Counted from the stretch's first letter, positions 4,249 to 26,609 are shown. The stretch: DNA of 64,000 nt from Elusimicrobiota bacterium (GCA_038059415.1 JBBTJN010000033.1:9330-73329), one strand, 5' to 3'. Notes: generated from the sequence alone by a model not told the origin. Translations and numbers: made by a program.

Positions 4249-5247
4249 CTATGCCGCGACCGATTTGCCCGCGCGGCGGCGCGCCAGGCCGCGCGCGGCG
4301 ATGACTTCCTGCGTGCCGCACGAGCAGTAGTAAACGGAGAGGGTTTTGGTCCGTTCCAGCGCGAAGAGCAGGAGGTCGAGGGCGGCCACGCCGCTCTCGG
4401 CGGTCGGGCGCCAGAGCAGATGGGGGGAGTCGGACTTCAGCGGGACCTGGCCGCCGGCGACCACGCGCTCGCGGTTCTCCGCGCACAGGAATAGCTCGTG
4501 GATGTTGAGGAACGGCACGCCCAGGGCGTCAAGCTCGAGGACCATGCGCTCCAGCCGCTCCTTATGTTCGGGGACGACCGGTATCTCGACGGCGACTTCC
4601 GGGAATATATCGAGCGCGCGGCGTACGGGCTCGAGGTCGTAGTCGCGCGCGGCCAGGTCGAAGCGGATCGCGTCGAGTCCGGCGTCGCGCAGCCTGGCCA
4701 ACAGGTCGTCTGTCGCCAGATCGCCGTTGGTGTAAAGGTCCACGCGGGGAGGATCGGGCATGGCTTTCAGCGCGCCGAGCAAAGCCAGCACGCGCTCCGG
4801 GCGCAGCAGGGGCTCGCCTCCGGACAGGCCGACGCTGCGCAGGCCGTAGCGCGCGATGATCTCGACCGCCTCGCCGGGCTCGTCGATGGGGATGCCGTGA
4901 ACGACGGTTTCGTCTTTGCGCGGCTTCGCGTTGAAGCAGAAGAAGCAGTCGCGCGTGCACAGGCCGGTCACGTAAAGGTTGCTGCCCCTTCCTTTGAGGC
5001 AGGAGACGCAGCCCGGCGGCAGCCGCCGCGTGTAGAGCGTCAGGCTCTCGAGGTCGCCTTTGATCCCGGCGGCGCGCAGGCTCCCCAGCCGGGCGCGCAG
5101 GACCGACACGCGTTGCGGGTCGGGCTCCGCTCCCGGCAGGGGCGCGAAGGCCAGCGCCGCCTTGCGCGCGTACCAGGAGAGATCGTCGGCGTCGCTCAGA
5201 CTCACGCGTTTGCTCGCCTCGCAACATTCCGGCCTGGCGAACGCCAT
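4249..5247 (-). CDS. Radical SAM protein, subfamily unknown.
   Basis: 332 aa. The CTRDCFFC motif is CxxxCxxC, and a GGEPLL glycine-rich SAM motif is present. Confidence 0.65.
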   Translation of the reverse strand: MAFARPECCEASKRVSLSDADDLSWYARKAALAFAPLPGAEPDPQRVSVLRARLGSLRAAGIKGDLESLTLYTRRLPPGCVSCLKGRGSNLYVTGLCTRDCFFCFNAKPRKDETVVHGIPIDEPGEAVEIIARYGLRSVGLSGGEPLLRPERVLALLGALKAMPDPPRVDLYTNGDLATDDLLARLRDAGLDAIRFDLAARDYDLEPVRRALDIFPEVAVEIPVVPEHKERLERMVLELDALGVPFLNIHELFLCAENRERVVAGGQVPLKSDSPHLLWRPTAESGVAALDLLLFALERTKTLSVYYCSCGTQEVIAARGLARRRAGKSVAA

Positions 5248-5386
5248 CTATGATGGCGGGCATAGTCGGCCTCAGGCGCGTCCGCTACACTTACTGGTCA
5301 AGGGAGGGACAGTGGAGCAGCGGACGATCCGTCTGAATTTCGACTTGAGCTTCGTGTACGGCCCGCGCACCTGGCGCCTGCCGATC

Positions 5387-5980
5387 ATGGCGGCGATGCT
5401 GTTGGCGTCCGTCGGCGAACTCAACTCCGAGAGCGTGGTTCTGACCACCTATTACCCCGCGCCCTCCGGCGTGTACACAAGCATGATCACCACGGGATCT
5501 ACGATACTTGCTCGTAATTCGAACAGTGTTGTTATCAATTCGTTGGGCACGGCGCCTGTATCCAATGCTAACCTCAAGTTGGGTGTCAATGGGGGGGTGG
5601 CCGTGGGATCATACTGGAACCAGACTGCCCCCACCCCGGCCAATGGGCTCATCGTCAGCGGCCGCGTGGGCGTGGGGATTGCGACGCCGGCCACAGCTCT
5701 CCATGTCGTCGGCCACACCTATATCAACGCTTCAGGTTGCAGCAGTTGGCCTATCACGACAACATCAGCAGACGGCATTGTGTGCATGCCTGGTTCTTAC
5801 GCGACTTTCCAACCCGGCGTCTACATCGAGGGTACCACCTACAACTACTTGCCGCTCCCCCGTCTGACAGACAGCGGTGGTACTGTGCGAAAATTTGCCG
5901 GAATGACCGCGGCCAGTTTGCCTGTTGCTATGCCCATCAGCTATGACCCAGGTATCAAGGCCTTGTGTTGCCCTAAATGA
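5387..5980 (+). CDS. Hypothetical secreted protein, in a noticeably lower-GC segment.
   Basis: The track ORF 5060..5980 overlaps the rSAM gene at its 5' end. The internal start MAAMLLASVGE (an alternative GTG lies at 5312) gives a hydrophobic N-terminus. Motifs such as GRVGVGIATPATALHV recur in fibre-like hypothetical proteins. Confidence 0.3.
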   Translation: MAAMLLASVGELNSESVVLTTYYPAPSGVYTSMITTGSTILARNSNSVVINSLGTAPVSNANLKLGVNGGVAVGSYWNQTAPTPANGLIVSGRVGVGIATPATALHVVGHTYINASGCSSWPITTTSADGIVCMPGSYATFQPGVYIEGTTYNYLPLPRLTDSGGTVRKFAGMTAASLPVAMPISYDPGIKALCCPK

Positions 5981-6196: not shown

Positions 6197-9100
6197 ATGA
6201 TCACGACATCATGGCCGGTGACGGATTACTTCGGCACGCGGCTTAAGCCGCGCTCTCTCGTCGAAGGGCCGGCGCGACTGGGATTGCGGGACTTCACCTT
6301 GGTCCTCGGAGATGAAGGCGCGATCTTGAAGCTGAGCGGCGATCTCGGCTCGGACTCCGTCGCCCGCGCGATGACCTGGCTGCGCGGACGGCTGTCTCCC
6401 TTTCTGCCCTGCCGGGCCGAGATCGGGGCGGCAAAGCCGGGCGGCGATTTCGAGGACAGGCGTCGCCGACCGACATGGATCATCGCGCTTGGCGAGATTT
6501 TCGACGAGGCAAAGGACGCGGCGCGCGTGGAGGCCGAGGTCCTCCTCCGGCTCGGCGCGCAGGCGCGCGTGATCAGCTGGCGGCGCCCCGGCGGACCGCG
6601 GGGGGTGCGCCCCGCGCGCATCGTGGCGGCTTCGCTCGAACCGAGGGCGCTGGCCTGGCTTGAGTCGGCCATGGCCGAGGACGAGGAGGCCGCGCCCGCG
6701 GACGCTGACATGCTTCTCGACGGCCTGGAGTGGGGCGTGGCGCGGCGGCCGACCATAGCGCGGGCGTCCGCCGCCGGCGAGGCGGCGCCCATCCTCGTCG
6801 ATCCCGCGCGCTGCACCGGCTGCGGGACGTGCGCCGAGGTGTGCCCGACACGGAGCATGGCCTTGAGGGGAACCTTCGCGCCTGGCGGCGTGGAGAGATG
6901 CCTGGGCTGCTTCGACTGCGTCGAGGCCTGTCCGCAGGACGCGCTGCGCCCGCGCTACGGAGATTCGAGCGCCACCACGGCTCGGTCCCTTGCCGGCCGC
7001 CCGGGCTGGCTGTCCCGTCTGCGCGGGGCGCCGGGACCGGTTTTACCCGCGCTTTTTCCTCCGTCTTATCTTCTGCCCAAGCCGGAGCCGCAAGCGAAAC
7101 CGAAATGGATACTGGGCCTGGCCGTGACGACCAGGCAGGAGCACGCGGCCGCTTTGCTCGAGGACGGTTCGGTCGCGGGCGCGGTGGAAGAGGAGCGCCT
7201 TTCGCGCGTGCGCCATCACGGCTATGCGCCGAAGGGCCGCCCCGGCTCGACGCTCGCCTCCGATCCCACAGTGTGTCTCGAGGAGGTCCTGTGCCGCCGC
7301 GCCGTCGGCGCGCTGCTTCTGGAGCGGAGTCTGACGCTCGACGACATGGACGTCATCGCGGTCAACGGCATCCCCGCACGCTATCGCGGCGCCTATAGCG
7401 CGCACGAAGCCGGCAAGACCATCCCCGTCCTGCGCGTTGGGCGCGTCGTCTACGTGCCTCATCATCTCAGTCATGCCGCCTCCGCTTGGCGGGTCTCGGG
7501 ACAGAAGGACTCCTGGGTGCTGAGCGTAGACGGACGCGGCGACCGTGAAACCGCGGCGGTGTTCCGGGGCCGTCGCGGGCGCCTGCGCCAGATCGGCGAG
7601 ATACTGAGCCTCACCGACCGTTCCATCGGCGGCGTTTACGAGACGGTGACGCGCCTGCTGGGCTTCGGCTCTCATGGACAGGGAAGCGTCATGGCCCTGG
7701 CTTCCTTCGGGAAATCTCGCTTTGATCTTACGCGCTATTTATCGCGCCGCGCCCGCGGCGCGTATTCCATCCATGAATGGGGGATCGGCGAGCGCTTCAA
7801 GTCGCTGGCCCGCGCGTCCGGCGCGCCGCTTAAATCCGGCCACAAAAATATGGCCGCGTCCCTTCAGGCCGCCCTCGAGAAAATAGTCCTGGCGATCCTC
7901 AAGGACGCGGGCGTTCCCCGCGACGCGTCCGGATTGTGCCTGGCCGGAGGCGTGGCCCTCAACTGCCGCATGAACGAACTCATACGCCGGACCTTCAAGC
8001 CGAGGGCGATGTTCGTCCAGCCCGCAGCCAACGACGCGGGCACCGCGCTAGGCGCGGCGCTGGAGGCCGCCGCTATCGTAGGAATGCCCGCGGCGCGGGC
8101 GCTCGAGCATGCCGGTCTGGGGCCGGCGTTTACGGAGGATGAAGCGCGCACGGCTCTCGAGCACGCGGGGCTCGGATATACGCGTCCCGCTTCAGTGGCC
8201 CGCGAGACGGCGGCGTTGTTGGTGAAGGGGGATGTCGTATGCTGGTTCCAGGGCCGCTCGGAATTCGGGCCGCGCGCGCTGGGCGCGCGCAGCCTGCTCG
8301 CCGACCCGCGGCGCGCGGACATGCGCGCGCGCGTCAACCGCCTTAAGGAACGCGAGTCCTGGCGTCCTTTCGGGCCCTCCATTCTCGCGGGGCACGAAAA
8401 GGAGTGGTTTGAGGACGGCTTCGACTCCCGCTTCATGCTCTTTGCGCGCAAGCTTAAGAGGGGCCGGGCCGCGCGGGTGCCGGCCGTAGCCCACGTCGAC
8501 GCCACGAGCCGCCCGCAGTCGGTTCATGCCGCGGCGAGCCCTCTTTACCATGAACTCCTGACCGCGTTTCATGAAATGACAGGCGTGCCCATGGTGCTCA
8601 ACACATCCTTCAACCGCGGGGGGGAGCCCATCGTCTGCTCGCCCCATGACGCCGTGGACTGCTTCCTGGGCATGGCCGAGGCCGGAGCTTTGATTCTGGG
8701 CCCCTTCGTCGCGCGGCGCGAGCCTGCGCGCCGCGACATTGACGCCGTCGCGTTGCCCTCGCTTCCCGGCGGTCGGCGTCTCATGCTGCGACTGACCGCG
8801 CGCGACGACTGCGATCCCGCGCACGCGCCCATCGCGGACATCGCGCATCTGGGCGACCGGACGTTCGAGGACGCCGTGCGCGCCATGGACGCGGGGCGCA
8901 AGGCTTCCTGCTCCGAGCTCGTGATTATGCGCGGGGAGGCCACGCTGCGTCCGGACCTCGAAGAGTTGCTCAGGCGCGCGCGCGCGATGGGCTACGGCTT
9001 TATACAAATCCAAACGAGCGGCCGAAGCCTGGCGCGCGCCGGCATACGCGCGCGCCTCCTTCCGCTCGTTGACGCTTTCGAGATCACGCTGTTCGCGGCC

Positions 9101-9667
9101 GACGAGCATACGCACGACGCGTTGACCCGCCGCCCGGGCTCGCTGCGCGAGACGCTTGCGGGCGTCGGGGCCGCCGTTATGGCGGGACGAGAGGTCGTGC
9201 TCAATGTTCCGGTTCTTCGGCGCAACCTGCTGCGGCTAATTCCCATCGTGACCTTGGCCGCCAAACTGGGCGTGAGGCGCGTTCAATTCTGCTTTCCACG
9301 GCCGGTGGAGACGGCCGACGGCCTTCAAACGGAATTCCTCCCCCGGCTTTCCGACGCGGCCCCGCGCGTGCGCGAGGCGCTGCGCGCCGCCGCGGCGGCG
9401 GGGCTCTCGGCCTCGACGGAGGGCATCCCCTTCTGCCATCTCGACGCGCGGCAGCGGTCGGGCCCCGACTCTGATGAGCGGTGGGCGCGCTTTCGCGTCG
9501 ACGATCTCCATCGCCTCGAAGAGGCGCTGGGTCCCGCCCGGTCCGGAGCACGCCCCGAGGCGCCGGTCTGCCGCGGCTGCGGCGTCCGTGATTCGTGCCC
9601 GCGCACCTGGGCGCTTTACCTCGCGGTGTTCGGCAGTTCCGAGTTGTCGCCTCTCGCTATGACATAG
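6197..9667 (+). CDS. Giant fusion protein (1156 aa). It has an N-terminal domain of unknown function, a 2x[4Fe-4S] ferredoxin domain, a carbamoyltransferase (NodU/CmcH/TobZ/HypF-like) and a C-terminal rSAM-like TIM-barrel domain. The rSAM Cys triad of that last domain is degenerate.
   Basis: The ferredoxin domain contains CTGCGTCAEVCP and CLGCFDCVEACP. The carbamoyltransferase core (WILGLAV..., HHLSHAASAW, LAGGVALNCRMN, VVCWFQGRSEFGPRALGARSLL) matches the Kae1-like carbamoyltransferase fold. The C-terminal region is homologous to the rSAM domains in this locus but reads DCDPAHAP where they have CxxxCxxC. It ends with the CRGCGVRDSCPRTWALYLAVFGSSEL tail. Confidence 0.8.
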   Translation: MITTSWPVTDYFGTRLKPRSLVEGPARLGLRDFTLVLGDEGAILKLSGDLGSDSVARAMTWLRGRLSPFLPCRAEIGAAKPGGDFEDRRRRPTWIIALGEIFDEAKDAARVEAEVLLRLGAQARVISWRRPGGPRGVRPARIVAASLEPRALAWLESAMAEDEEAAPADADMLLDGLEWGVARRPTIARASAAGEAAPILVDPARCTGCGTCAEVCPTRSMALRGTFAPGGVERCLGCFDCVEACPQDALRPRYGDSSATTARSLAGRPGWLSRLRGAPGPVLPALFPPSYLLPKPEPQAKPKWILGLAVTTRQEHAAALLEDGSVAGAVEEERLSRVRHHGYAPKGRPGSTLASDPTVCLEEVLCRRAVGALLLERSLTLDDMDVIAVNGIPARYRGAYSAHEAGKTIPVLRVGRVVYVPHHLSHAASAWRVSGQKDSWVLSVDGRGDRETAAVFRGRRGRLRQIGEILSLTDRSIGGVYETVTRLLGFGSHGQGSVMALASFGKSRFDLTRYLSRRARGAYSIHEWGIGERFKSLARASGAPLKSGHKNMAASLQAALEKIVLAILKDAGVPRDASGLCLAGGVALNCRMNELIRRTFKPRAMFVQPAANDAGTALGAALEAAAIVGMPAARALEHAGLGPAFTEDEARTALEHAGLGYTRPASVARETAALLVKGDVVCWFQGRSEFGPRALGARSLLADPRRADMRARVNRLKERESWRPFGPSILAGHEKEWFEDGFDSRFMLFARKLKRGRAARVPAVAHVDATSRPQSVHAAASPLYHELLTAFHEMTGVPMVLNTSFNRGGEPIVCSPHDAVDCFLGMAEAGALILGPFVARREPARRDIDAVALPSLPGGRRLMLRLTARDDCDPAHAPIADIAHLGDRTFEDAVRAMDAGRKASCSELVIMRGEATLRPDLEELLRRARAMGYGFIQIQTSGRSLARAGIRARLLPLVDAFEITLFAADEHTHDALTRRPGSLRETLAGVGAAVMAGREVVLNVPVLRRNLLRLIPIVTLAAKLGVRRVQFCFPRPVETADGLQTEFLPRLSDAAPRVREALRAAAAAGLSASTEGIPFCHLDARQRSGPDSDERWARFRVDDLHRLEEALGPARSGARPEAPVCRGCGVRDSCPRTWALYLAVFGSSELSPLAMT

Positions 9668-9685: not shown

Positions 9686-10789
9686 TTGAGGAGGTCTAAT
9701 TACGCTGTGATCATCAAACTCCTCCTGGCGTCTCTGTTCATAAGTCCCACCTCCGCTGTCGCGGTTGATTCCCCGCGGGGAGAAAGCCTCACCAGCACGG
9801 CTCGCGTGAGCGCCAATCAACGGATTTCCGAGCGCTGCCGGAGGCCGTTGTTCAGCGTCGATGAAATTCTAGCCGACGCGAATCTTCGCTCAGATATGGC
9901 GACCTGCGCCTGCACTGAGGGGGCAGACCCTAATGACTATGTCGCGTGCCGCGCTCTGCAGGGAGCGTCCGACGGATGCGAGTCGCTTGAGCATTTCGGC
10001 AAAAAACGCGCGAATGTGTGCCGGATTGCAGTGCTGACGGACCTCCTTTTGTATCAGATTTGGCGCGACGGCGACGCGCCCACCGCATGCCGGAAACTGA
10101 TGGAGGTCGAAGGCGTGCGAGGGCCTTCCCTGGAGAAAGGCTGCGCCGCTTTGATCCGGGGAGTTCGCGGCATAGACGTTGCGGCGTCCTGCGTGGTGCT
10201 CAAGAGGGAATTCCCATTCGACTCCCAGGAACAGTGCGAACCCTTACTGAAGGCATGGTCCGGAGAGATTAGCGCCTGCAAGGGGGGGAACAAGGATTAC
10301 CTGCGCTCCTGCCGCGCGCAAGCGGCTTTGGTGGCCGGTCTGCGCGATCCCGCCCGGTGCGCGGCTTCGCCCTCGTGCCAGGCGCTTATTGCGAAGTCGC
10401 CGGGAGCGTGCGATGGCTTGCGCGAGCAAGTCTCCCGCGCGCTCTGCGCAGGCGTCGCCAAGAATCTCGCCGCCGAGCAACAGCGTTTGGCTCAGGAAAT
10501 ACGCAAAGAGGACATACGCAAAGCGGAAATGCGCCAAGAGGAAATGCGCCAAGCGGAAATACGCAGTCGAAAGGAACTGCAGAAGAAAATTGCGGACGAG
10601 GCTGCGGCGCGGGCCGCAGCCGCAGCCAAGATTGCCAAGGAGAAGCCGCAGTTCCGCAAGGGTGAGCCGATGGAGACGACCGACCCTCATGTTTTGGAGA
10701 GAATAAAAGCGATCGAAGAAGGCCGTCCCATTCCCATTCCCAAACCTGAGCCCAAGATGGGAACCGAGAAGGCCCCGGACGAGGAGTAA
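9686..10789 (+). CDS. Secreted Cys-rich protein with a C-terminal coiled-coil repeat region.
   Basis: The signal peptide is MRRSNYAVIIKLLLASLFISPTSAVA. There are more than 20 Cys, and the EIRKEDIRKAEMRQEEMRQAEIR repeats are encoded by 15-nt tandem repeats. Confidence 0.45.
   Translation: MRRSNYAVIIKLLLASLFISPTSAVAVDSPRGESLTSTARVSANQRISERCRRPLFSVDEILADANLRSDMATCACTEGADPNDYVACRALQGASDGCESLEHFGKKRANVCRIAVLTDLLLYQIWRDGDAPTACRKLMEVEGVRGPSLEKGCAALIRGVRGIDVAASCVVLKREFPFDSQEQCEPLLKAWSGEISACKGGNKDYLRSCRAQAALVAGLRDPARCAASPSCQALIAKSPGACDGLREQVSRALCAGVAKNLAAEQQRLAQEIRKEDIRKAEMRQEEMRQAEIRSRKELQKKIADEAAARAAAAAKIAKEKPQFRKGEPMETTDPHVLERIKAIEEGRPIPIPKPEPKMGTEKAPDEE
10496..10570 (+). repeat. Five tandem 15-nt repeats (GAAATMCGCMAAGMG) encoding E-I/M-R-K/Q-E/A pentads.
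   Basis: Read directly from the sequence: gaaatacgcaaagag / gacatacgcaaagcg / gaaatgcgccaagag / gaaatgcgccaagcg / gaaatacgcagtcga. Confidence 0.6.
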
Positions 10790-13370: not shown

Positions 13371-13823
13371 ATGGATGACATGGACAAGAAGAAGGACGCT
13401 TCCAAAGGGGAATTCGTTCCGCGAGTCGCCAAGGACCTCTCCCGTTTTTTGACCAGCGAGGAGGGTAAGATTCTTAAAAAAGACGTGCTCAAGGCGGCGG
13501 CGGTTCTGGGCATCATCGGGGCGGCCATCATGCGCGCGGAGGATCTGCTTGCGCAGTCTCACACCAACGCGATCCACAACTCCGGAAACGCCCCGGCCCG
13601 GCATAGCAGCCACAGCTCTCACGCCAGCCATGCGTCTCACGGCAGCCACGGCAGCCACGGCAGCCACGGCTCGCACGGGAGCCACGGCTCACATGGGAGC
13701 CACGGCTCGCACGGGAGCCACGGCTCGCACGGGAGCCACGGCTCCCACGCCTCGCACGGCTCCCACGGATCCCACGGATCCCACGGATCCCACGGTTCAC
13801 ATGGCAGTCACGGGCAATGGTGA
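13371..13823 (+). CDS. hxsA: His-Xaa-Ser repeat precursor protein, HxsA-like.
   Basis: 150 aa. It has an N-terminal region with a hydrophobic helix ([16 protein letters not shown]). The C-terminus is (H-S/G/A-S)n, about 25 tripeptide repeats, [20 protein letters not shown]...GSHGQW. Confidence 0.8.
13602..13811 (+). repeat. About 23-25 tandem 9-nt repeats (CAC GGN AGC and variants) encoding His-Gly/Ala-Ser.
   Basis: Directly visible as cacggcagccacggcagccacggctcgcacgggagc... Boundaries are approximate. Confidence 0.85.
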
Positions 13824-15720
13824 GGCCAGCCGCCAACGACGCGCCGGCCTGATACGTCTGGCGCGGACCGCAGCGAAGGCGGTCCGCGACGCGGGGGTGG
13901 TCCCGGCGCGAGCATGCATTCGTGTCGATCCCTCCGTTGACGCACCCGTCTGCGTGTGGAGGGCCCTGCCGAGGGCCGGACGAGCCGCAGAATTCCTGGT
14001 GCCGCCGCCTTTGCTCGATGCGGACGCCGGTCCGCGCCTCGCGGGTCTGCTTTCGGTCGCTCTGGCGCGGGCGGGAAACGGATCGTCATACCCCGCTTTA
14101 CCGACCGCTGCCGCCGTGCAGGTTCTCCTTTTTCGCAGCCTTCTCGAGGCGCCGGGCAAGGAAGGAGCGGATCGTCTCAACCAGGGGACATTGTATCTCG
14201 CCTCGGCGTTGCGCGCGGCCGGAGCGGAGGTCGTCCTTTCCGACGCCAAGGTCTCCCGCTTCGCTCGCGAGCCGCGAGAACGAGAGGACCTCGCCCGCCT
14301 GCTCAAAGCCAATCCGGACATCACCTTGGTCGCGCTGAGCCTGTACGATGCCTACTTCGAGGATGCCGCAGCCCTGGTGAGCTTCTTGCGCGAACGCACG
14401 AGAGCCCGGATCGCGATCGGGGCGCTCATGCCCACCCGCGACCCGGAGTCCGCCCTCCTTCATCTGCCGGGCGTCGACTTCGTCTGTCGGGGAGCCGGCG
14501 AGGAGATCCTTCCACGGTTGGCCGCGTTAGCCTCCGTTTGTCCGAGGAGCGCCTTCGACGAGGCCGCCCAAGGGGCGCTGCTCGCCATGGACGGCGTGCT
14601 GGCCGTCGACGACGGGCGTTCGTCCTATTGGGCAGGGGCCGAGGACATCCTGCGCGTCCCCGATCTCGATGCCTCGGCTCTCGACTTCTCGTTCGTGGAA
14701 CGCCGCGACGTTCAATCAGGGCCGACGTTCTGCCTCTCGAGGGGCTGCGGGAGCGCCTGCCACTTCTGCACCTCCCCGGATCAAGGACGCTTTCACGGCA
14801 AGAGCGCCGTCGAGGTCGGGCGGGTGCTGGCCGGGTATGGACGCCGGCTCAAGGAGCTTTATGGGTCCTGGAGCGCGGCTCCGGACGACGCCTTCGCAAT
14901 TGGATTTTATGACGACGACTTCCTGTCCGACGCGCCGCGGGCGTTGGCCGTTTTTGACGTCGTGCGCCGTTCGCCTTTCCATCTGCGCTTTCTACAGGCG
15001 AGCATTCGAGCTTTCTTCCGGCGCGGCAAGGGCGGCGCGATTGGGGGCCTCGACGAGAGCCTGCTTGATGCGCTGTCGCCGGAACTCTTCGTGCCGAAGC
15101 TCGGGCGAGGAAAAGCCTCCCGTGGTCCCCAGCTCTATCTGGGCACCGAGAGCTTCTGCGACGCGGAGCTAGCGCGCCTGGGCAAGGGTTATGGCGTGGC
15201 ACAGGTGGAGGACGTGGTCCGAGCCCTCTCGCGACGGGGATTGAGCCAAGCCCACCACTTTATCGCGACGAACGCCCGTACCCGCCCCGAGGATGTGCTC
15301 GATAGCCTCGGGCGCATCGTGCGCCTGCGCGATGAGTGCGGCATGGATTTCGGCGTGCTCGAGCCCGTAATCTCCCATCTCGTCTCCTTCCCCGGGACCG
15401 CAAGCCTGCGCGCGCTTCAGCGCGAGAGGCTGGATGCGTGCGTCGAGTCGCGCGGCGTCCTGGCCGTTGCGGGCTTCCCGGAATTCGATTATCCTCTCAC
15501 CGTCCGGGAGGTGCCCGCCGACGCAGACGTCGCGGCTTGGGTGGAGCGGCTGAAAATGAAGGGCGCCGGGTTGGATTGGGAGAACGAGTTCGAGGGATTG
15601 CTGTTTGAATGGCTCCTGCTCAGTGAGAGCCTCAGCGCGCGCGGCGCGCAACCCGAGCGCGCCGCGAATCTTCGCCGTGCCGTGGACGCGCAGGCGGGCC
15701 TCATGGGGACGGCACCATGA
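13801..15720 (+). CDS. B12-binding-domain radical SAM protein (class B-like) with an N-terminal extension. The start is uncertain.
   Basis: A Rossmann-like B12-binding region (VQVLLFRS...[13 protein letters not shown]...) is followed by CGSACHFC (CxxxCxxC) and a GTESFCD GxES-type motif. The track ORF starts at 13549 inside hxsA. An ATG at 13801 overlaps the hxsA end. Confidence 0.55.
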
Positions 15721-17935: not shown

Positions 17936-20118
17936 AGGTGCTCCTTCTCAACCCGCGCAACCCCGATCCGCCTCCGGTCTACTTCGGCGCGCCCTACGGC
18001 CTGTCCTTGCTCGGAGCCATCCTGAATTCCCGCGGCGTCGAGGTCGTCGGGCGCGACTATACCCATTTTCCCCAGGCGGCCATGCTCGGCGACGCGTCCG
18101 CCGTAGTCGAGAGGGAAGGTCCGGACCTCGTGGGCATTTCCTGCCAAAGCTCCAACCGCGGGGCGGCCGTCGCCTTAGTTCGGCGTCTCAAGGAAGAATC
18201 GCCCAAACTTCGCGTCGTGGTGGGTGGGCCCTTCGCCAGCACCGACCCCGAACTGGTCCTGCGCCGCACCGGAGCCGACTGGGTCGTTGTTGGAGACGGC
18301 GAGGAGACTTTGCCCGAGCTCGTCATCGCGCTCTCCCGCGGCGGCGACGCGCGCGAGGTCGCGGGCCTGCTTTGGTCCGAGCGCGGCAAGGTTCGTCGGT
18401 CGGCGCAACGGGAGCCCTTTTCGGATCTCGACTCATTGCCCGATCCCGACTTCGACCTGTTCGAGGCCGCGTCCAACCTGAGCCGATTTCAGAGGCCGCG
18501 CGCGGAGGCTCTGGCCGCGCCCGTCGGGGCGGCGGGCCGTCCGTGCCTGGTCATGCATAGCGCCATCATGCTCCTGAGTTCGCGAGGTTGCGTGTATCGC
18601 TGCGTGTTCTGCCCCATGAGCACCTTCAAGGGCAAGCCCCGCCTGCACTCTCCCGCCTATTTCGTCCGTCAGGTCTCCGTGATGGCCCGGCGCTACCGCT
18701 GGCGCGATTTCGTCTTCGGCGACAACTACTTCACCCGTGACCGAAAGCGCGTACTGGAGATCTGCGCGGGGCTGCGCCGTGAGGTGCCCGGCATCCGCTG
18801 GATATGCATGACGCGCTCAGACGCTATGGACCCGGTGTTGGCTCGCGAGATGGCCGCCGCGGGCTGCCGCGAAATCTCCTACGGCATCGAGAGCGGTTCG
18901 CCGCGGGTGCAGAAGGCCATCGGCAAGAGCCTGGACCTCGACCGCGTGCCCGCCGCTTTCGCCGCCACGCGCGAGGCGGGGATGCAGACGGTGCTCATGC
19001 TCATGGTGGGCAACCCCGGAGACAATCTTGAGACGACGCGCGAGACGGCCGACTTCCTGCGCCCAATCCAGGCGGATCGGATACAGGTGCACACGACCAA
19101 GGTCTATCCCGGCACCGCCATTCACGCGACGGCGGCGGCGGCCGGAGTGATCCCTCCCGACTTTTACGAAAGCGACGAGCATCAGCCTCCGCTGTACACG
19201 GTGGAGCGCAGCGCCGCCGAGCTTTCGCAGATGCGAGTTCTCCTGCCCTCCCGCACGCATTATATTGAGGCAAATTCCGGCTGTGTCAACGGCTGCTGTT
19301 TGTTGCGCCGTCCCGCCGCCCGCAAGAAGATCGCCTTATCCGCCGCGTTGGCGCAGACCGCGTTCCGGGCGGAACGGGGCGTACTGGGGGGGGGGGAGTC
19401 TCTCCTCATCGCGGACCTGGACAAGGCGCTTGACGACGCCGAGGCCCTGCAGGTGTTCGACCTGAGCTTGTACACCACGGCTAGGCCCCTGGCCGACGCG
19501 CGCAGGGTCTCGGGTCTGCGCGCGCGCAAGGAGATGCGCCGCCTGGTCGTACCTCTTCTGTCTCCCGAGGCAGCGCGTCACGATGCGCGCGCCCGCGTGC
19601 CCGGGGCCCTGGCCCAGACGAAACTTGGTCTGCGGCACTGGCTGCGAAGCGGCGGCGAAATTCTGGCCTGGCTCATACCCATGAGGGAAGACCTCGCCGA
19701 ACTCGGGACATGGACGCGTCGCCTGGCTGGCGAGGGCGTGCGAGAGGCGCTTCTCATTCATCGCGAGCCGCCTCCCGGCTGGGGCGGCCTGCCTTTGGAG
19801 GACACCCCGCGCCTGGAGCCCTTCGCCGCCGCCGCGGCCGAGGCCGCCTTCCGCGCCAAAGAGGCGGGCCTGACGTTGAGCGTGTTCGGTCTGCCTCCCT
19901 GCCTCTGGGATGGGAAGCTGGCTCCACGGCATGAGGACCGCGCTCTCTACGACGAGGTGGTCTCTGACGCGGCGGAGGCGGTGACTGCCCGTTCGCGGCG
20001 CCTCCTGCGGCAGGCCTTCAGCCCGTGTTGTTCCGGTTGCGCGCGGCGGCCTTCGTGCGACGGCGTCTGGGGCGATTATCTCGCCCGGCACGGGGAGGAG
20101 GAGCTTCATGCCCTCTAA
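17932..20118 (+). CDS. B12-binding-domain radical SAM protein with a roughly 300-aa C-terminal extension.
   Basis: The N-terminal B12-binding fold is MKVLLLNPRN...LVGISCQSS. The rSAM motifs are CVYRCVFC and SYGIESGS. The tail is CSGCARRPSCDGVWGDY...EEEL. The GTG start overlaps the upstream stop. Confidence 0.75.
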   Translation: MKVLLLNPRNPDPPPVYFGAPYGLSLLGAILNSRGVEVVGRDYTHFPQAAMLGDASAVVEREGPDLVGISCQSSNRGAAVALVRRLKEESPKLRVVVGGPFASTDPELVLRRTGADWVVVGDGEETLPELVIALSRGGDAREVAGLLWSERGKVRRSAQREPFSDLDSLPDPDFDLFEAASNLSRFQRPRAEALAAPVGAAGRPCLVMHSAIMLLSSRGCVYRCVFCPMSTFKGKPRLHSPAYFVRQVSVMARRYRWRDFVFGDNYFTRDRKRVLEICAGLRREVPGIRWICMTRSDAMDPVLAREMAAAGCREISYGIESGSPRVQKAIGKSLDLDRVPAAFAATREAGMQTVLMLMVGNPGDNLETTRETADFLRPIQADRIQVHTTKVYPGTAIHATAAAAGVIPPDFYESDEHQPPLYTVERSAAELSQMRVLLPSRTHYIEANSGCVNGCCLLRRPAARKKIALSAALAQTAFRAERGVLGGGESLLIADLDKALDDAEALQVFDLSLYTTARPLADARRVSGLRARKEMRRLVVPLLSPEAARHDARARVPGALAQTKLGLRHWLRSGGEILAWLIPMREDLAELGTWTRRLAGEGVREALLIHREPPPGWGGLPLEDTPRLEPFAAAAAEAAFRAKEAGLTLSVFGLPPCLWDGKLAPRHEDRALYDEVVSDAAEAVTARSRRLLRQAFSPCCSGCARRPSCDGVWGDYLARHGEEELHAL
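19386..19396 (+). repeat. Homopolymeric G tract of about 11 inside the 17932 gene.
   Basis: ctgggggggggggag encodes GGGE. The exact length is +/-1. Confidence 0.6.
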
Positions 20119-21976
20119 GAAAATACTAAACACGACGCGCTCGGTCATGCTCATGGCCACGTACGAGTGTCAGTTGCGCTGCGCCTACTGCCAGATCCGG
20201 CGTGGGCCCCGGCGCATGGACGAGCGCACGGCCTTGCGCGGCGCGGACCTTCTTCTGTCGTCGCATGCCGACCATCTCCTCCTCAACTTCTTCGGCGGCG
20301 AGCCCCTGTTGGTCTGGGACCTGGTGCGCAAGACGGCGGCCTATGCCCGCGAGCGCCGCGGGGGCCGCCCCTTGCGCATCAACCTCACCACCAACGGCCT
20401 TCTGCTCGATGACAAGAAGATCGAATTCCTTCAAAGTGTGGACGGCTATGTGCACCTGAGCCTCGACGGCCCCGCCGAGGCCAACGCTTCGCGCCTGCGC
20501 TCCGCCGGTCCCGGCGCGCAGAAGGCGATGCAAAGTGCGCTCCGCCGTCTCGCGGCCTCCGGCCTGCCATACCATGTCAACGCCGTCGTCGATCCCGTGC
20601 GCGCGGCCTCCTTCGACTGCGACTTGCTCGCCCTCGAGGATCTGGGCGCGCGCCGTATCCAGTTCGGCTATCAGGTCGGCGTGCTTTGGAGCAAGCGGGC
20701 CATCGGCGACCTTCTCGCGGCGCTCGACCGCTACGCGGCGCGCGGGAAAGCCGAGCTTAACAACCGCACCTCGGACAGCGAGCCGGTTATGCTCAGCCAG
20801 GAGGTCATCGTCGATACCGACGGCCGCATTTATTGGGACGGAGGGCTCTTTCTAGAGGCGACCTTGCCGAAGGTGCGTGAGGCGCTGCTCTTGGGATGCC
20901 TCGACGCGTCGCCCGACGTTGACGCCTTCGAGCGAGAGCCGCGCAAACCCTACGAACGGCTGACGACCGCCTACCCGGCGAACACGAAGGGCGGTCATAT
21001 CATCCTCAATAACGTCAAGGTGGGCCTGGCCCTCAAGCGCCATTGGGTGGGCCAGCGCGGCAACGAGGACCCCGCCATCCGGCGCGGCGTGGTCCAGGCG
21101 CGGTTCACCGAGCAGGTCCGCTTCCTGAAAGAGCGCATGCCGGGGCTCGACCGCGTATTCCTCTTCATGAAAGGCGGCTGCGACCTGGACTGCCTGTTCT
21201 GCCGCAACAAGCCGGAGAAGGATTATCAGACGCTTGAAGAAATAGACGCTTGTCTCGCCGAGAACGCCGTATTGCGTCGTGCGAAAATCGCTTTAGTCGG
21301 CAACGAACCCCTGGCTCATCTACAGATCGCCGACATCGTGAAGTTATGCCGCCACTGGGGCTTCACCGACATCGAGGCGATGACATCCGGTCTGCGCCTG
21401 GAGGCGCTGGCGCGTCCATTGGCCGATGCCGGCATGAGTTCCTACGCTTTAGCTCTTCACGGCTCGACGGCCAAAGTCCATGACGCCGTGGTCCGCCATG
21501 ATGGCGCGTTCGACGCCGCCTTGCGCGGCGCCGAGGGGGCGCAGGCGGCCGGTTCGCGAGTCTTTGTGCATGCCAGCGCCTGCCGGGCGAACCTATCCGA
21601 TCTCCCAGCCCTCGAAAAGCTGGTCCGCGAGCGCGCCTGGCCGTTCTCGATTCACCCGCTGCGTCCCAAGGACGCCGACGGCATGAACGAGCCCTACGAC
21701 AAGATCGCGCCGGACTATGCCGAGCTTCGCGCCGCTTTGACCGGCCGCGTTAGATCGCTGACCGGCTTTCCCTCCTGCGTGGCCCGCGCCGTGCAGGGCC
21801 GAGCTTCGTGCCCGGCCGCGCAGATCGCCGATTCCATGCGGCTTTACCTCCATCATCAGGCCTTCGTGAAGCCCGCGACATGCTCCGCGTGCCCGGAGCG
21901 CGAGGATTGCGTGGGCACATTCGAAGAGCATCTCCGCTCCCGTCCCGCGGAGAAAAAGGAGCTGACTTTCTCATGA
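20108..21976 (+). CDS. Tandem double radical SAM domain protein.
   Basis: Two CxxxCxxC motifs are present: CQLRCAYC near the N-terminus and CDLDCLFC at about residue 360. The N-terminal half is paralogous to the 15717 and 16718 genes. The tail is CSACPEREDCVGTFEEH. Confidence 0.75.
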   Translation: MPSKKILNTTRSVMLMATYECQLRCAYCQIRRGPRRMDERTALRGADLLLSSHADHLLLNFFGGEPLLVWDLVRKTAAYARERRGGRPLRINLTTNGLLLDDKKIEFLQSVDGYVHLSLDGPAEANASRLRSAGPGAQKAMQSALRRLAASGLPYHVNAVVDPVRAASFDCDLLALEDLGARRIQFGYQVGVLWSKRAIGDLLAALDRYAARGKAELNNRTSDSEPVMLSQEVIVDTDGRIYWDGGLFLEATLPKVREALLLGCLDASPDVDAFEREPRKPYERLTTAYPANTKGGHIILNNVKVGLALKRHWVGQRGNEDPAIRRGVVQARFTEQVRFLKERMPGLDRVFLFMKGGCDLDCLFCRNKPEKDYQTLEEIDACLAENAVLRRAKIALVGNEPLAHLQIADIVKLCRHWGFTDIEAMTSGLRLEALARPLADAGMSSYALALHGSTAKVHDAVVRHDGAFDAALRGAEGAQAAGSRVFVHASACRANLSDLPALEKLVRERAWPFSIHPLRPKDADGMNEPYDKIAPDYAELRAALTGRVRSLTGFPSCVARAVQGRASCPAAQIADSMRLYLHHQAFVKPATCSACPEREDCVGTFEEHLRSRPAEKKELTFS

Positions 21977-22923
21977 CCGCCCCCGGGATCCTTGCGGCCT
22001 CCCGGCGTTTGGAGTTGCATCTCTCCTACGTCTGCGGCCAGCGCTGCGCCTTCTGCTCGGAGAGCGTGCGCATGGACCGATGGCGACACGCGCCGCTCAA
22101 GGGCGAAGAGATATCCGCTGTCCTCATCAAACGCCGCAAGGCGGGCTTCAACCACGTGACCTTCACCGGAGGGGAGCCTACGGCGCAGGCGCTCCTGCCG
22201 GCCGCGCTCGCTGCGGCCCGTAAGCTCGGCTTCAACACATATCTGACCACCAACGGCGGGCTCTTCGCTCAGGAGAAATACGCCCGGGAGGTCCTGCCGC
22301 TCGTCGATGAAATCTGCCTGTCCGTTCACGGCCCCGACGCCGAGACCCACGATGCCGCGGCCGACACGCGGGGCTCCTTTGATCGGGCGATGAAGGCCCT
22401 GGCCAACATCGAGGCACACGGCGCGAGCACCTACCTTCTCACCAACACCGTCGTCACGCGACTCAACTGGGACCGTCTTGAGGACACCTTGGCCCTGCTG
22501 ACCTCTCATCCTAAGGTCCGGCATTGCCTCCTCTCCAACGTCGCTCCGGAAGGCCGCGCGTCCGGCGCTTACAAGTCCTTGGTCGTGCCGCTGTCGAAGT
22601 GGCGTCAGCGAGTGCCTGCGCTCGCCCGCCCCTTCGAGACAAACGGCGTGGTCCTGCGGCTGTTCGGCCTGCCTCTGTGCGTCCTAGGCGGGCGGCTGGA
22701 ACTGTCCAATGACGCCCATTATTCCCCGCGTGTGACCGTGGAGCGCCGCGGCGCGAAAGGCAGGCCCGGCCTGAGCGCAATCGCCAGCGTCGACGCCTCG
22801 CGCCGCCGCAGCAAGCCCGGAATCTGCCGCTCCTGCGACGGGCGTGGAGATTGCGCCGGCGTATTCGACCGCTACCTCGCCGCTTACGGAAGTTCGGAGC
22901 TCGCGCCCCAGAGGGCGAACTAA
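21973..22923 (+). CDS. Radical SAM protein.
   Basis: The motifs are CGQRCAFC and TGGEPT. The tail is CRSCDGRGDCAGVFDRYLAAYGSSEL. The ATG overlaps the upstream stop (ATGA). Confidence 0.75.
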   Translation: MTAPGILAASRRLELHLSYVCGQRCAFCSESVRMDRWRHAPLKGEEISAVLIKRRKAGFNHVTFTGGEPTAQALLPAALAAARKLGFNTYLTTNGGLFAQEKYAREVLPLVDEICLSVHGPDAETHDAAADTRGSFDRAMKALANIEAHGASTYLLTNTVVTRLNWDRLEDTLALLTSHPKVRHCLLSNVAPEGRASGAYKSLVVPLSKWRQRVPALARPFETNGVVLRLFGLPLCVLGGRLELSNDAHYSPRVTVERRGAKGRPGLSAIASVDASRRRSKPGICRSCDGRGDCAGVFDRYLAAYGSSELAPQRAN

Positions 22924-23864
22924 TGGCCACGCTCGCATATCTACAGGTTGCGCGCATCTGCAATCAAAAATGCCTGTTCTGTTCCAACCCGGAGAACGGG
23001 CGCGTGATCTCCTGGAAGGAAGCGACGGATCTGGTGGATTGCTTTGCCAAGGAGAAGGCCGCCGGAGTGATCATCACTGGGGGCGAACCGACCTTGTTCG
23101 ACCGTTTGCCGGAGTTGGTGGCCTACGCCCTCAAGAGGGGATTGCCGCCGCGTCTCATCACCAACGGTCAGCGAGTCTGCAGGCCTGATTACCTCAAGGC
23201 GCTCGTCGACGCCGGGCTCAGCCACATGCATATCTCCGTGCATTCGGCTAGGCCCGAGGTGCAGGGAGAGCTCACGGGCAATAACAACTCTCTTGCGAAC
23301 ATACTGCGCGCCCTGGAGAACGCCGGGAAGCTGGGGGTGCGCGTGGACATCAACAGCGTCATCAATAGTCGCAACGCCGGGCACCTGAGCTACACGCCGC
23401 GCTTTCTCGTTGAGCGCTTCCCGTTCCTTTGCCACTTCGTCTGGAACAATCTGGACCCGCAGATGAATGCCGCCTCGCTCAATGCCGAACTCGTGCCCAA
23501 GTTGAGAGCATTCGAGGTGGAACTCCATCGCGCGATGACCTGGCTGGCCAAGGCCGGGAAAAGCTTTCGCGTCGAGCGCGTGCCGCTCTGCTTCATGTCC
23601 GATTTCGGTCATTTCTCCACGGAGACGCGCAAGTTCGTCAAGAACGAGGGCCGAGACATCTATTTCTTGGACGAGAAGGGACGCAAGAAACAGGACAAAA
23701 GCTCCTGGAGTTACGACAAGGCGCCGCGCTGCAAGGCGTGTTCCGTCAATAAGATTTGCGCCGGGTTGTATCAGATGGACGTGTACTACTCTTCCTCGGA
23801 GCTCTGTCCCATACTGACTCCGGCAGACGAGGTGGTCGCGAAGGTCCGCGCGGAGGCGTCATGA
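22923..23864 (+). CDS. Radical SAM protein, paralog of the minus-strand gene at 25671..26609.
   Basis: The motifs are CNQKCLFC and TGGEPTL. The tail is CKACSVNKICAGLYQMDVYYSSSEL. Confidence 0.75.
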   Translation: MATLAYLQVARICNQKCLFCSNPENGRVISWKEATDLVDCFAKEKAAGVIITGGEPTLFDRLPELVAYALKRGLPPRLITNGQRVCRPDYLKALVDAGLSHMHISVHSARPEVQGELTGNNNSLANILRALENAGKLGVRVDINSVINSRNAGHLSYTPRFLVERFPFLCHFVWNNLDPQMNAASLNAELVPKLRAFEVELHRAMTWLAKAGKSFRVERVPLCFMSDFGHFSTETRKFVKNEGRDIYFLDEKGRKKQDKSSWSYDKAPRCKACSVNKICAGLYQMDVYYSSSELCPILTPADEVVAKVRAEAS

Positions 23865-24817: not shown

Positions 24818-25674
24818 GGAGCGAGGATCTGTTGGTTCTGGTCCTCACGCGCCGCTGCGAGCGGCGGTGCGGTCATTGCCCGCAGTCCTTCGACGAGGCC
24901 GACATGTCCGAGGGCACTCTCGACGCGGCATTGGAGGGCCTGCTGCCGCAACTGCGCCCTCCCGCCCGCGTCAAGCTGTTCGGCGGCGAGCCCCTGCTGC
25001 GCCCGGACCTCGTGACGCGCGCCCTTGAGCGCCTGGCGGTCCTGGCTCCGGGCACGGCCGTGGAACTTCCCACTCACGGCACGGGACTGTCCGCGGTGGA
25101 GGCGCTTCTGGCTCGCCGTCCCGAGGTGGAGGTGTTTGTCAGCTTCGCCGATCCCGCGGCGGCCCGCCTGTCGGGCGTGGTGCACAACTTCTTGATCCCG
25201 CCCGGAGAGGCCCCGGCCTCAACGGCGCGCCGCATGGCTCTGGCGCGCAAGCGCGGCTACAACCGTTTCAACTTCCTGCCCGCTTACTTCGTGCCCTGGA
25301 CGCCCGCTCAACTCAAGGGCCTGGCCTCCTGCTTTGCCGCGGTGCGCAGGGTGCTCGACTGCTGGTCCGCCGCAGGCCGCTGCGCCGAGGTGGTCAATCT
25401 CTCTCGGCGCGGGACGACGCCGCTGTACAACGATGGCCTGGTCGTCGACACCGACGGCGAGGTGTACAACTCGAATCTGATTTTGGCCGCCGCCGTTAGG
25501 CCTCACAGGGGGAGGCTGCATCTGGGCCGGGTACACGAGCCCGGCAATCTGTCCGCGCGACCGATCGCCGAAGCCGCGCAAGTCATGCGGGACTCCTTTC
25601 CCGCGGATGTCTTGGCGGCAACGTCGGCGGTAGACGCGGAGCTGACCGCGTTCTGCCTCAGGCTCTCCCGCTAG
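24814..25674 (+). CDS. Radical SAM protein.
   Basis: The motifs are CERRCGHC and FGGEPLL. The TTG start overlaps the upstream stop. Confidence 0.65.
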   Translation: MRSEDLLVLVLTRRCERRCGHCPQSFDEADMSEGTLDAALEGLLPQLRPPARVKLFGGEPLLRPDLVTRALERLAVLAPGTAVELPTHGTGLSAVEALLARRPEVEVFVSFADPAAARLSGVVHNFLIPPGEAPASTARRMALARKRGYNRFNFLPAYFVPWTPAQLKGLASCFAAVRRVLDCWSAAGRCAEVVNLSRRGTTPLYNDGLVVDTDGEVYNSNLILAAAVRPHRGRLHLGRVHEPGNLSARPIAEAAQVMRDSFPADVLAATSAVDAELTAFCLRLSR

Positions 25675-26609
25675 GGGCTTGCCCTGATCCTGCGCCGCAC
25701 CTCTTGCGCGGGCAGGGCGGACGGACACAACTCCTGCGACGAGTAGTGCGTGTCCATCTGATACAGCCCCGCGCAGACCGAAGTCAGCGAGCAATCCTCG
25801 CATCGCGGGCTCTTTGCGTAGCTCCAATGAAGACCGTGCTGTTCCTGAAGGCCCTTCTCGTCGAGGAAGTAGATGCTGCGCGACTCTTTCTTGACGATCC
25901 GACGCGTCTCAGTCGAGCACTCCGGATAATCCGACATGAAGCACAGCGGCACGCGCGCGACGCGGAAAGTCCGTCCGGTGGAGTCGAGTTGGGCCATAGC
26001 CTTGTGCAGTTCTATCTCGAGGTCGCGTAGGCGCGCTACCAGGTCAGGGCCCAGGGACGCGCCGTTCATGAGCGGGTCGAGGTTGTTCCACACGAAATGG
26101 CGCAGATAGGGCCAGCGTTCGATGAGCCAGCGCACCAAAGCGGAGAGTTCGCTCGCGTTGACCTTGGTGATAGTGGTGTTGATGTCCACCGTGAGGCCGA
26201 GCGCGCCCGCGTTGTCCAAGGTCTTGATGATGTTGGCCAGGGAGCGAGGGTTGCGGGAGAGGGACGCCTGGGTCTTGCCGGATGGGGAATGGACCGAGAC
26301 GTGCATGAGGCGCAGGCCGGCGGCGTAAAGCGATTTCAGGTATTTCGGATCGGCGGTTTTCTGGCCGTTGGTGATGAGGCGTGGCGTCAGGCCCTTGTCG
26401 ATTGCGTAAGCCGTCAATTCGGCGAGCTCCTTGAAGAGGGTGGGCTCGCCGCCGGTGAGGATAAGTCCGTCGTAGTTCTTCGCGGCGAAGCCGTCGACGA
26501 GGTCGATGGCCTCCTTCCAGGAGAGGACCATGCCGTTGTCGGGGTTGGAGCAGAAGGTGCACTTCTGATTGCATAGGCGCGATACCTGCAGATAAGCCAT
26601 TTCGGCCAT
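25671..26609 (-). CDS. Radical SAM protein, convergent with the plus-strand array.
   Basis: The motifs are CNQKCTFC and TGGEPTL. The tail is CEDCSLTSVCAGLYQMDTHYSSQEL. The track ORF extends to 26834, but the internal ATG at 26609 (MAEMAYLQV...) matches the paralog N-terminus and abuts the upstream stop. Confidence 0.7.
   Translation of the reverse strand: MAEMAYLQVSRLCNQKCTFCSNPDNGMVLSWKEAIDLVDGFAAKNYDGLILTGGEPTLFKELAELTAYAIDKGLTPRLITNGQKTADPKYLKSLYAAGLRLMHVSVHSPSGKTQASLSRNPRSLANIIKTLDNAGALGLTVDINTTITKVNASELSALVRWLIERWPYLRHFVWNNLDPLMNGASLGPDLVARLRDLEIELHKAMAQLDSTGRTFRVARVPLCFMSDYPECSTETRRIVKKESRSIYFLDEKGLQEQHGLHWSYAKSPRCEDCSLTSVCAGLYQMDTHYSSQELCPSALPAQEVRRRIRASP

Follow-up and report, generated by a model that had tools for sequence, protein, structure and literature searches.

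What happens to a radical S-adenosylmethionine (SAM) domain when the cysteines that hold its SAM-cleaving cluster are gone and the rest of the protein is kept? The question is raised by one of two paralogous carbamoyltransferase fusions, A and B, in a stretch of 64,000 nucleotides (nt) from an Elusimicrobiota bacterium (GCA_038059415.1, JBBTJN010000033.1:9330-73329; hereafter the window). The first-pass annotation of the window had proposed that A lost its radical SAM Cys triad and might contain a pseudo-enzyme domain. We find that the triad is indeed missing from A and intact in B, and that the loss in A has a single origin and is inherited. We think it probable that A is an active carbamoyltransferase with a catalytically dead, functionally retained radical SAM-like module, the radical chemistry coming from other proteins. 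The two paralogs are 50% identical end to end by pairwise alignment, and both are four-part fusions of an N-terminal domain, a 2x[4Fe-4S] ferredoxin, a carbamoyltransferase with Kae1-like and YrdC-like parts, and a radical SAM (in A, radical SAM-like) domain. Their features are as follows (window coordinates; aa, amino acids; ORF, open reading frame):

6197-9667, + strand: paralog A, an ORF of 1156 aa
26609-30106, - strand: paralog B, an ORF of 1165 aa with the architecture of A and an intact radical SAM motif
6197-6781, + strand: N-terminal domain of A (aa 1-195), without assignment to a fold family
6812-6934, + strand: two CxxCxxCxxxCP ferredoxin motifs of A, CTGCGTCAEVCP and CLGCFDCVEACP, 2x[4Fe-4S]
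7097-8731, + strand: carbamoyltransferase core of A, Kae1-like (aa 301-625) and YrdC-like (aa 626-845), apparently intact
8768-9421, + strand: Cys-less radical SAM-like barrel of A (aa 858-1075)
8801-8830, + strand: degenerate cluster loop RDDCDPAHAP of A (aa 869-878)
8927-8944, + strand: MRGEAT of A, the retained GGE-type SAM-binding motif of the family
9422-9664, + strand: C-terminal module of A with C1080, C1125-x2-C1128-x5-C1134, and the FGSSEL tail
27431-27454, - strand: intact CDLQCPHC of B (C885, C889, C892)

The critical segment of A, LMLRLTARDDCDPAHAPIADI (aa 862-882, nt 8780-8842), pairs with LSLRVTVDCDLQCPHCTIADI of B (aa 877-897, nt 27478-27416). In every pairwise and multiple alignment C885, C889, and C892 of B stand opposite D870, P874, and A877 of A, that is, the three cysteines are replaced by Asp, Pro, and Ala. 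A does not carry the three-Cys motif of functional radical SAM proteins. The strings quoted in the first-pass annotation are thus both present, the contrast it drew between the copy at 6197 and the CxxxCxxC of the copy at 26609 is correct, and its range of 8700-9667 properly covers the C-terminal domain. Beyond the triad the tails correspond, reading FCHLD, CRGCGVRDSC, and FGSSEL in A and ACLLD, CRTCVLRETC, and FGSSEL in B. The only Cys in the segment of A, C872, faces a Leu of B. It is an extra cysteine of the A lineage and no remnant of the triad, since it coexists with an intact triad (CDCxCxHC) in the relatives P0004, P0013, and P0183 (P numbers denote proteins, L numbers loci). The annotation had also allowed for an alternative nearby Cys triad; the candidate made up of C872, C905, and C1032 is ruled out, each of the three being absent from some ortholog.

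As to whether orthologs of A share the loss, more than 20 do, 72-84% identical to A and derived from independent Elusimicrobia metagenome-assembled genomes (MAGs) and metagenomes. A full-length protein search, with 120 fusion proteins listed, gave 18 Cys-less cluster representatives in the same identity range (72-84%). Cys-less loops read DDC[D/E]xAH[A/G]P or a more eroded form, and the degenerate loop recurs in independently assembled contigs from NCBI, ENA, JGI, and Logan. The first protein search yielded P0001, a fragment that is 84% identical to A and shares its RDDCDPAH loop; P0004, a relative at 62% identity whose CDCACAHC is intact; and standalone homologs of 303-310 aa that carry CNSGCAHC. 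Among MAG loci 74-83% identical to A, the loop is DDCDPAHA in L001, EGRAQSHA in L002, and DDCEQAHA in L004, and the metagenome loci L028, L029, and L032 are all Cys-less. The triad is intact in L003 (GWA2_66_18), at 68% identity, and L005, at 69%, reads CDCDGAYC. C[DE]LxCPHC is found in every B-type locus, and more distant A-type relatives also keep CxxxCxxC.

A tree of the YrdC and radical SAM parts together unites the Cys-less proteins in one clade in 100/100 bootstraps, and one of the carbamoyltransferase domain does so in 94/100; L005 is their sister in 60/100 replicates. In a scan of one genome per species, full-length relatives were confined to Elusimicrobia MAGs, from groundwater and similar sites. 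Since deeper A-type relatives have the extra Cys beside an intact triad, a stepwise route from CxxxCxxC through CxCxCxxC and CxCxxxxC to the Cys-less state is plausible from the sequences. The CxCxxxxC variant, which lacks the second Cys and has an additional one at +2, recurs in separate branches (L005, P0189, P0192, and P0204), and may still bind a cluster as an alternative motif.

How unusual is such a loss? A profile search that covered 1.84 billion representatives exhaustively returned 523 proteins at E<=1e-30. Among the best 150 of these 523 representatives, the triad is kept in 223/223 motif-covering domains (one requiring a one-residue shift), and the 16 that are carbamoyltransferase fusions are all intact. 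The Cys-less state is therefore exceptional and derived. Within the fusion family, further independent degenerations are found in P0200 and P0208 (A..E..N), P0225 and P0229 (T..P..C/D), and P0210 (S..A..C); nine proteins have lost the N-terminal half of the barrel, and the whole C-terminal domain is absent from four. On the carbamoyltransferase tree, degraded, truncated, or deleted copies occupy at least six separate places. A domain-less Elusimicrobia clade (L007, L008, L009, L011; P0245, P0247, P0248) is the sister of the A-type clade, and domain-less copies share MAGs with intact B-type ones (L006 + L011, L009 + L010, L007 + L018). Given these at least six inactivations, truncations, or deletions, the radical SAM domain looks accessory to a constant carbamoyltransferase function.

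Additional radical SAM domains also occur in this subfamily. Tandem double radical SAM proteins are encoded in the window (20108-21976, + strand) and at L025 (1980-3854), many of the best family representatives show two to four matched stretches, so that tandem repeats are common, and a fusion relative of 1580 aa (P0012) has an extra N-terminal radical SAM domain (aa 3-315) ahead of the usual architecture. Two other candidates were dropped: the standalone 303-310-aa homologs (P0005-P0009) are not split fusions beside a carbamoyltransferase, the upstream gene at L026 being unrelated to A, and the B12-binding ORF at 13549-15720, which has no Pfam radical SAM match, is not a second pseudo-domain, as it carries CGSACHFC.

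Is the Cys-less domain decaying, or is it kept? In 73 intact fusion domains, conservation reaches 90% or more in 60 columns; the 18 Cys-less sequences keep 53 of the 60 at that level, and three more fall only to 16/18. The sole fully changed columns are the three Cys and the Thr that follows the third, a result repeated in a smaller set and in a whole-protein scan. The earlier statement that the remainder of the C-terminal domain is conserved, with its CxxCx5C...FGSSEL tail, is thereby borne out. The pairwise ratio of nonsynonymous to synonymous substitution rates (dN/dS) in the barrel is 0.265 within the Cys-less clade (0.18-0.40, 15 pairs) and 0.249 (0.20-0.30) for the intact B-type, with codon-bootstrap upper limits of <=0.43, all of these being rough as absolute values because the synonymous distances (dS 0.35-0.9) are moderately saturated. 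Ratios of barrel to carbamoyltransferase-subdomain dN/dS are similar in the Cys-less and B-type groups. Cys-less proteins are no less identical to B than intact A-type relatives are, which indicates no acceleration, and the more than 20 orthologs, some as far apart as 72% identity, contain neither frameshifts nor stops. We reject neutral decay on dN/dS and on the retention of conserved columns; with a dN/dS equal to that of the intact paralog and 53/60 positions kept, the pseudo-enzyme domain that the annotation had suggested is a better description than a decaying relic.

The fold is retained as well. An AlphaFold2 (AF2) model of the A domain is a radical SAM partial barrel (predicted local distance difference test, pLDDT, 76.9; predicted template modelling score, pTM, 0.79), with low confidence precisely where the cluster loop once was (model residues 25-32). 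Foldseek matches the barrel at probability 1.00 to BlsE, SkfB, MoaA, and GDGT-MAS, the nearest structures also including SuiB and viperin, and a profile search against the PDB finds BlsE at 1.5e-10. The MRGE of A aligns with tGGEp of BlsE, so the GGE-type motif, which in radical SAM enzymes touches the amino group of SAM, is present, and its E914 is kept in 17/18 Cys-less representatives. The exception, P0175/L002, has Val there and is further eroded, with the Cys-free loop EGRAQSHA and a 6-aa deletion; the loop of P0170 has DDGD. A candidate second lesion of the SAM pocket, W918 to Arg after the GGE motif, was dropped, as Arg is the consensus of the wider family, though Trp is typical of intact fusions. 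PF04055 matches A at aa 886-1007 with 33.3 bits (cut-off 29.5). Public records label Cys-less members "radical SAM protein" (e.g. P0185), and precomputed Pfam annotation gives PF04055 for several of them; such naming of Cys-less members is an annotation pitfall.

The carbamoyltransferase part of A matches TobZ (3ven) at E 5.5e-80 and GdmN at E 3.8e-73. HHLSHAASA and VDGRGD of A align with HHLAHAASA and VDGQGE of TobZ, the metal-binding HxxxH and Asp motifs, which are nearly invariant across 60 homologs. Pfam scores on A are 105 bits for Carbam_trans_N (PF02543, cut-off 24), 206.5 for Carbam_trans_C (PF16861, cut-off 27), 38.6 for Fer4_10, and 33.3 for Radical_SAM; on B they are 118 for Carbam_trans_N, 206 for Carbam_trans_C, and 22.4 for PF04055. 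A Pfam TsaD match also falls on the core (Kae1/TsaD fold family). The carbamoyltransferase subdomains have the lowest dN/dS in A, 0.17-0.24, and judged by these motifs and scores the enzyme appears intact and looks functional. Both ferredoxin CxxCxxCxxxCP motifs are intact in A and in B. The N-terminal domain is the fastest-evolving part of A (dN/dS 0.42); its AF2 model, built of alpha/beta units, is confident (pLDDT 85.4), with no Pfam match and, in a fold search with that model, no structural relative in the PDB at E<=0.001.

At the other end of the protein, C1080, C1125, C1128, and C1134, spaced C-x44-CxxCx5C, are invariant wherever any C-terminus remains, including homologs without the N-terminal half of the barrel. 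This pattern suggests that the four-Cys module is probably an auxiliary Fe-S (or metal) site; the SPASM family PF13186 gave no Pfam match on A, and AF2 confidence is low in part of the region. Selection thus keeps three parts of the protein: the four-Cys C-terminal module, the ferredoxin, and the carbamoyltransferase core.

How could such a protein work? As we picture it, A would be an active carbamoyltransferase of the TobZ/NodU type. Its C-terminal domain would be of genuine radical SAM ancestry and, as we infer from the sequence, would be unable to hold the SAM-cleaving [4Fe-4S] cluster; it would then neither cleave SAM nor start a radical. Because the barrel, the GGE-type motif, the family-conserved residues, and the four-Cys site are all kept, the domain appears to be retained as a non-catalytic module, most likely one that binds a substrate or intermediate or docks a partner, an inferred role akin to the scaffold or substrate binding that the first-pass annotation had put forward. 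An auxiliary Fe-S cluster would probably sit at the invariant four-Cys site. The radical steps would fall to the intact domain of B or to partner radical SAM enzymes of ~310 aa; as B and the partner genes lie nearby, A has active radical SAM enzymes within reach in trans. The genes concerned are:

25671-26609, - strand: standalone radical SAM gene of the partner type (CNQKCTFCSNP...), immediately downstream of B
22923-23864, + strand: second partner-type radical SAM gene, in a radical SAM operon 13 kb downstream of A
4249-5247, - strand: small, unrelated radical SAM gene lying upstream of A behind orf5300, 31% identical over 112 aa to the partner type
L001 9033-9956 and L037 8891-9823, both - strand: partner genes elsewhere, with the motif CNQxCxFCSNP ... 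CxxCSLxxICAGLW

The likely ATG of the gene at 25671-26609 overlaps the stop codon of B by one base (translational coupling to B). Genes of this type also follow B-type genes in L014, L010, and L018, and the window copy is 46% identical to the L037 partner; the product of 22923-23864 is 45-47% identical to the radical SAM partners of L001 and L037. In the relatives' loci, which were examined with 10-kb flanks, a partner gene of ~310 aa lies divergently beside A-type or domain-less genes at nine places (L001, L002, L004, L028, L032, L005, L003, L009, and L011). In L037, from an unrelated genome of 5.98 Mb, the partner, at 62.5% identity to the L001 copy, adjoins an intact fusion and stands beside an ornithine carbamoyltransferase (OTCase)-like gene. 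Paralog B is therefore not the only option as a compensating partner, given a standalone radical SAM gene conserved beside A-type genes. The partner gene is a conserved neighbour of the fusion across phyla, and in the window it is absent beside A, where its usual place is taken by the gene at 4249-5247; only ~217 nt separate orf5300 from A. Two hypothetical genes without Pfam match flank A (5300-5980 and 9686-10789, both + strand) and are syntenic in every Cys-less locus (L001, L002, L004, L028, and L032); one is Gly/Thr/Val-rich and ends in CCPK, the other Cys-rich with a Lys/Glu-rich repeat tail.

The wider setting is a Group VI nitrogenase-like (NFL) locus as in groundwater Elusimicrobia, which takes up nearly the whole window, with NifH-like genes, NifD/K-like genes, and ~20 radical SAM genes:

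11583-57589, both strands: Group VI nitrogenase-like locus with ~20 radical SAM ORFs, several of them B12-binding
36438-38789, 48619-49449, and 50595-52991: three NifH-like genes, alongside at least five NifD/K-like pairs
54578-55336: tetrapyrrole methylase
485-2409: MobA/MoeA (molybdenum cofactor, Moco, genes), flanking the locus
58347-59027: Crp-type regulator, flanking the locus
61610-63643: anaerobic ribonucleotide reductase NrdD, flanking the locus

Fer4_NifH and Oxidored_nitro matches are spread over 31242-54262. The ORFs at 36438-38789 (- strand) and 50595-52991 (+ strand) are uninterrupted, each has a NifH-like and a NifD/K-like (Oxidored_nitro) domain, and they are candidate NflH-NflD fusions; the former is matched over its full length by L014, and in its NifH part only by L008 and L009. 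Group VI clusters of groundwater Elusimicrobia were described by Meheust et al. 2020 (bioRxiv 10.1101/765248), and the locus is reviewed in Chem Rev 2026 (PMC13474568, section 7). The term "carbamoyl" is absent from both texts, so the Cys-less paralog is not described there, and our literature searches on carbamoyltransferase-radical SAM fusions and on pseudo-radical-SAM proteins returned nothing usable. Outside Elusimicrobia (L034, L035, L036, L037) the fusions do not lie in nitrogenase-like loci: in a polysaccharide locus (L036) a truncated copy has glycosyltransferase and sugar-nucleotide genes as neighbours, and the L037 fusion has the OTCase-like gene, an amidohydrolase, and a xanthine-dehydrogenase-like gene around it. 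These neighbourhoods hint at a general role of the fusion family in small-molecule or glycan carbamoylation.

Which other explanations could account for the Cys-less domain? An error of sequencing or assembly, or a pseudogene, with CxxxCxxC in the true gene, can be given practically no credence as an explanation: the ortholog census refutes it, with the loss in more than 20 independent orthologs, and the ORF of A is uninterrupted, has a GC content of 0.82 at third codon positions (GC3), as is usual for coding sequence, and is under purifying selection. A relic without function that is heading for deletion, still present for want of time or because its removal would be destabilising, seems unlikely to us. 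A sister clade without the domain, its truncation in other lineages, and the erosion of L002/P0175 (Cys-free loop, GGE Glu to Val, 6-aa deletion) are what such a course would leave behind, but a dN/dS of 0.27, equal to that of the intact paralog and bounded by bootstrap at <=0.43, does not fit it, nor do the 53/60 columns kept, the clean reading frames of the more than 20 orthologs, and the want of acceleration relative to intact A-type proteins.

Several points weigh against the reading that we prefer, a dead module kept for a non-catalytic purpose. The absence of the cluster and of SAM cleavage is read from sequence, and the dN/dS values behind its retention are rough. The former cluster loop is as conserved as the domain on average (majority fraction 0.861 vs 0.863) and is rich in Asp, Cys, and His, so that a new ligand site is conceivable; the kept GGE-type motif means that SAM or a related ligand could still be bound for another purpose. 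In the genome scan, the MAGs of L001, L002, and L004 gave only the A-type locus and no B-type one, and no second carbamoyltransferase-radical SAM fusion lies within 10 kb of the degenerate copies from outside Elusimicrobia, so that supply in trans by a paralog is not general; standalone radical SAM genes do flank one such copy (P0266). If A were still a metalloenzyme, with the acidic loop (D870, D871, C872, D873, H876) or three of the C-terminal Cys binding a cluster or metal and catalysis continuing, the conservation of DDC[D/E]xAH[A/G]P at the domain average in the 18 representatives, the invariance of H876 and of the four C-terminal Cys, and the GGE-type motif in 17/18 would all be expected. 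ThiC is a non-canonical SAM radical enzyme with a C-terminal cluster motif, and the CxCxxxxC variant of L005, P0189, P0192, and P0204 indicates that rearrangement of the motif is tolerated. Yet the loop of P0175/L002 (EGRAQSHA) has neither the Cys nor the Asp pair and its GGE Glu is also lost, P0170 has DDGD, and the four C-terminal Cys occur equally in intact homologs and are thus no replacement, four ligands moreover leaving no open Fe. We know of no radical SAM enzyme with Asp, Pro, and Ala at the three cluster positions, which counts against continued catalysis, and we rate it as slightly more improbable than a relic. A new function, in which the domain binds SAM, a nucleotide, or a sugar nucleotide without a cluster and serves the carbamoyltransferase as a sensor, an allosteric unit, or a ligand-delivery module, is doubtful, though of the alternatives it is the one we take most seriously. 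The conserved GGE-type motif and other barrel residues agree with it, as do closest structures that include the sugar-nucleotide-modifying BlsE and DesII, and the presence of some family members in polysaccharide loci; without the cluster, however, the main anchor for the amino-acid moiety of SAM is gone, and with only the loop changed, no residue change specific to the Cys-less proteins hints at a new pocket.

What, then, does the case of A offer? As a natural knock-out of the SAM-cleaving cluster, A would be a ready negative control: B is expected to cleave SAM and A is not. The Cys loss is part of a wider, repeated loss of the radical SAM domain and reveals no new principle; its use lies in dissecting a Group VI NFL locus, which with its ~20 radical SAM genes is among the least understood of nitrogenase-like systems. 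One could go further and imagine the fusions and their dedicated partner radical SAM enzymes as a maturation machine, not recognised before, that builds a carbamoyl-derived group or ligand for the Group VI product or cofactor, with A as the scaffold or carrier half of a complex with B or with a partner enzyme, which would hold the intermediate at its four-Cys site while active radical SAM units act. We draw this by analogy with HypF and HydG of hydrogenase maturation and regard it as a long shot, less credible than any of the alternatives above other than the artefact.

How does A compare with known systems? The window is of the same kind as the Group VI NFL clusters of Meheust et al. 2020, with relatives that include GWA2_66_18. 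The core of A and B is alike in TobZ, NodU, CmcH, and GdmN (Kae1-like plus YrdC-like); characterised TobZ/NodU-type enzymes, unlike A and B, have no ferredoxin, no such N-terminal domain, and no radical SAM domain, and A scores 143.7 bits with the NodU equivalog NF041651, below its cut-off of 1000. For the C-terminal barrel the best sequence and structure matches are BlsE, MoaA, SkfB, and HxsC-type proteins, with scores under the family cut-offs for HxsC4 (60.3 vs 500 bits) and HxsC (32.6 vs 267.9); with all curated radical SAM family scores far below cut-off, the domain of A lies outside every such family. MoaA and the Twitch/SPASM enzymes have a C-terminal Cys cluster besides the N-terminal triad, as does the present family, in which A is without the triad.

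Closer parallels are found among proteins in which a duplicate has lost its catalytic residues. TsaD-TsaB is an active/inactive paralog pair, and in pairs of this type the inactivated duplicate stays, as A does; in A, by contrast, the loss is confined to a single domain among several, and an A-B complex is hypothetical. The GG-Bacteroidales system pairs a pseudo-rSAM protein with a true radical SAM maturase. Pseudo-radical-SAM proteins (NCBIfam TIGR04347, "pseudo-SAM/SPASM") resemble A in that the cluster Cys are gone and the protein is retained beside genuine radical SAM genes. TIGR04347 is not among the 25 best families of A, and B reaches 24 bits against a cut-off of 525; unlike in that family, the dead domain of A is fused to a ferredoxin and a carbamoyltransferase and arose recently inside an otherwise active family. 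Cys-less radical SAM homologs are thus a recognised category, of which the domain of A is a separate, recent origin in an uncharacterised fusion family.

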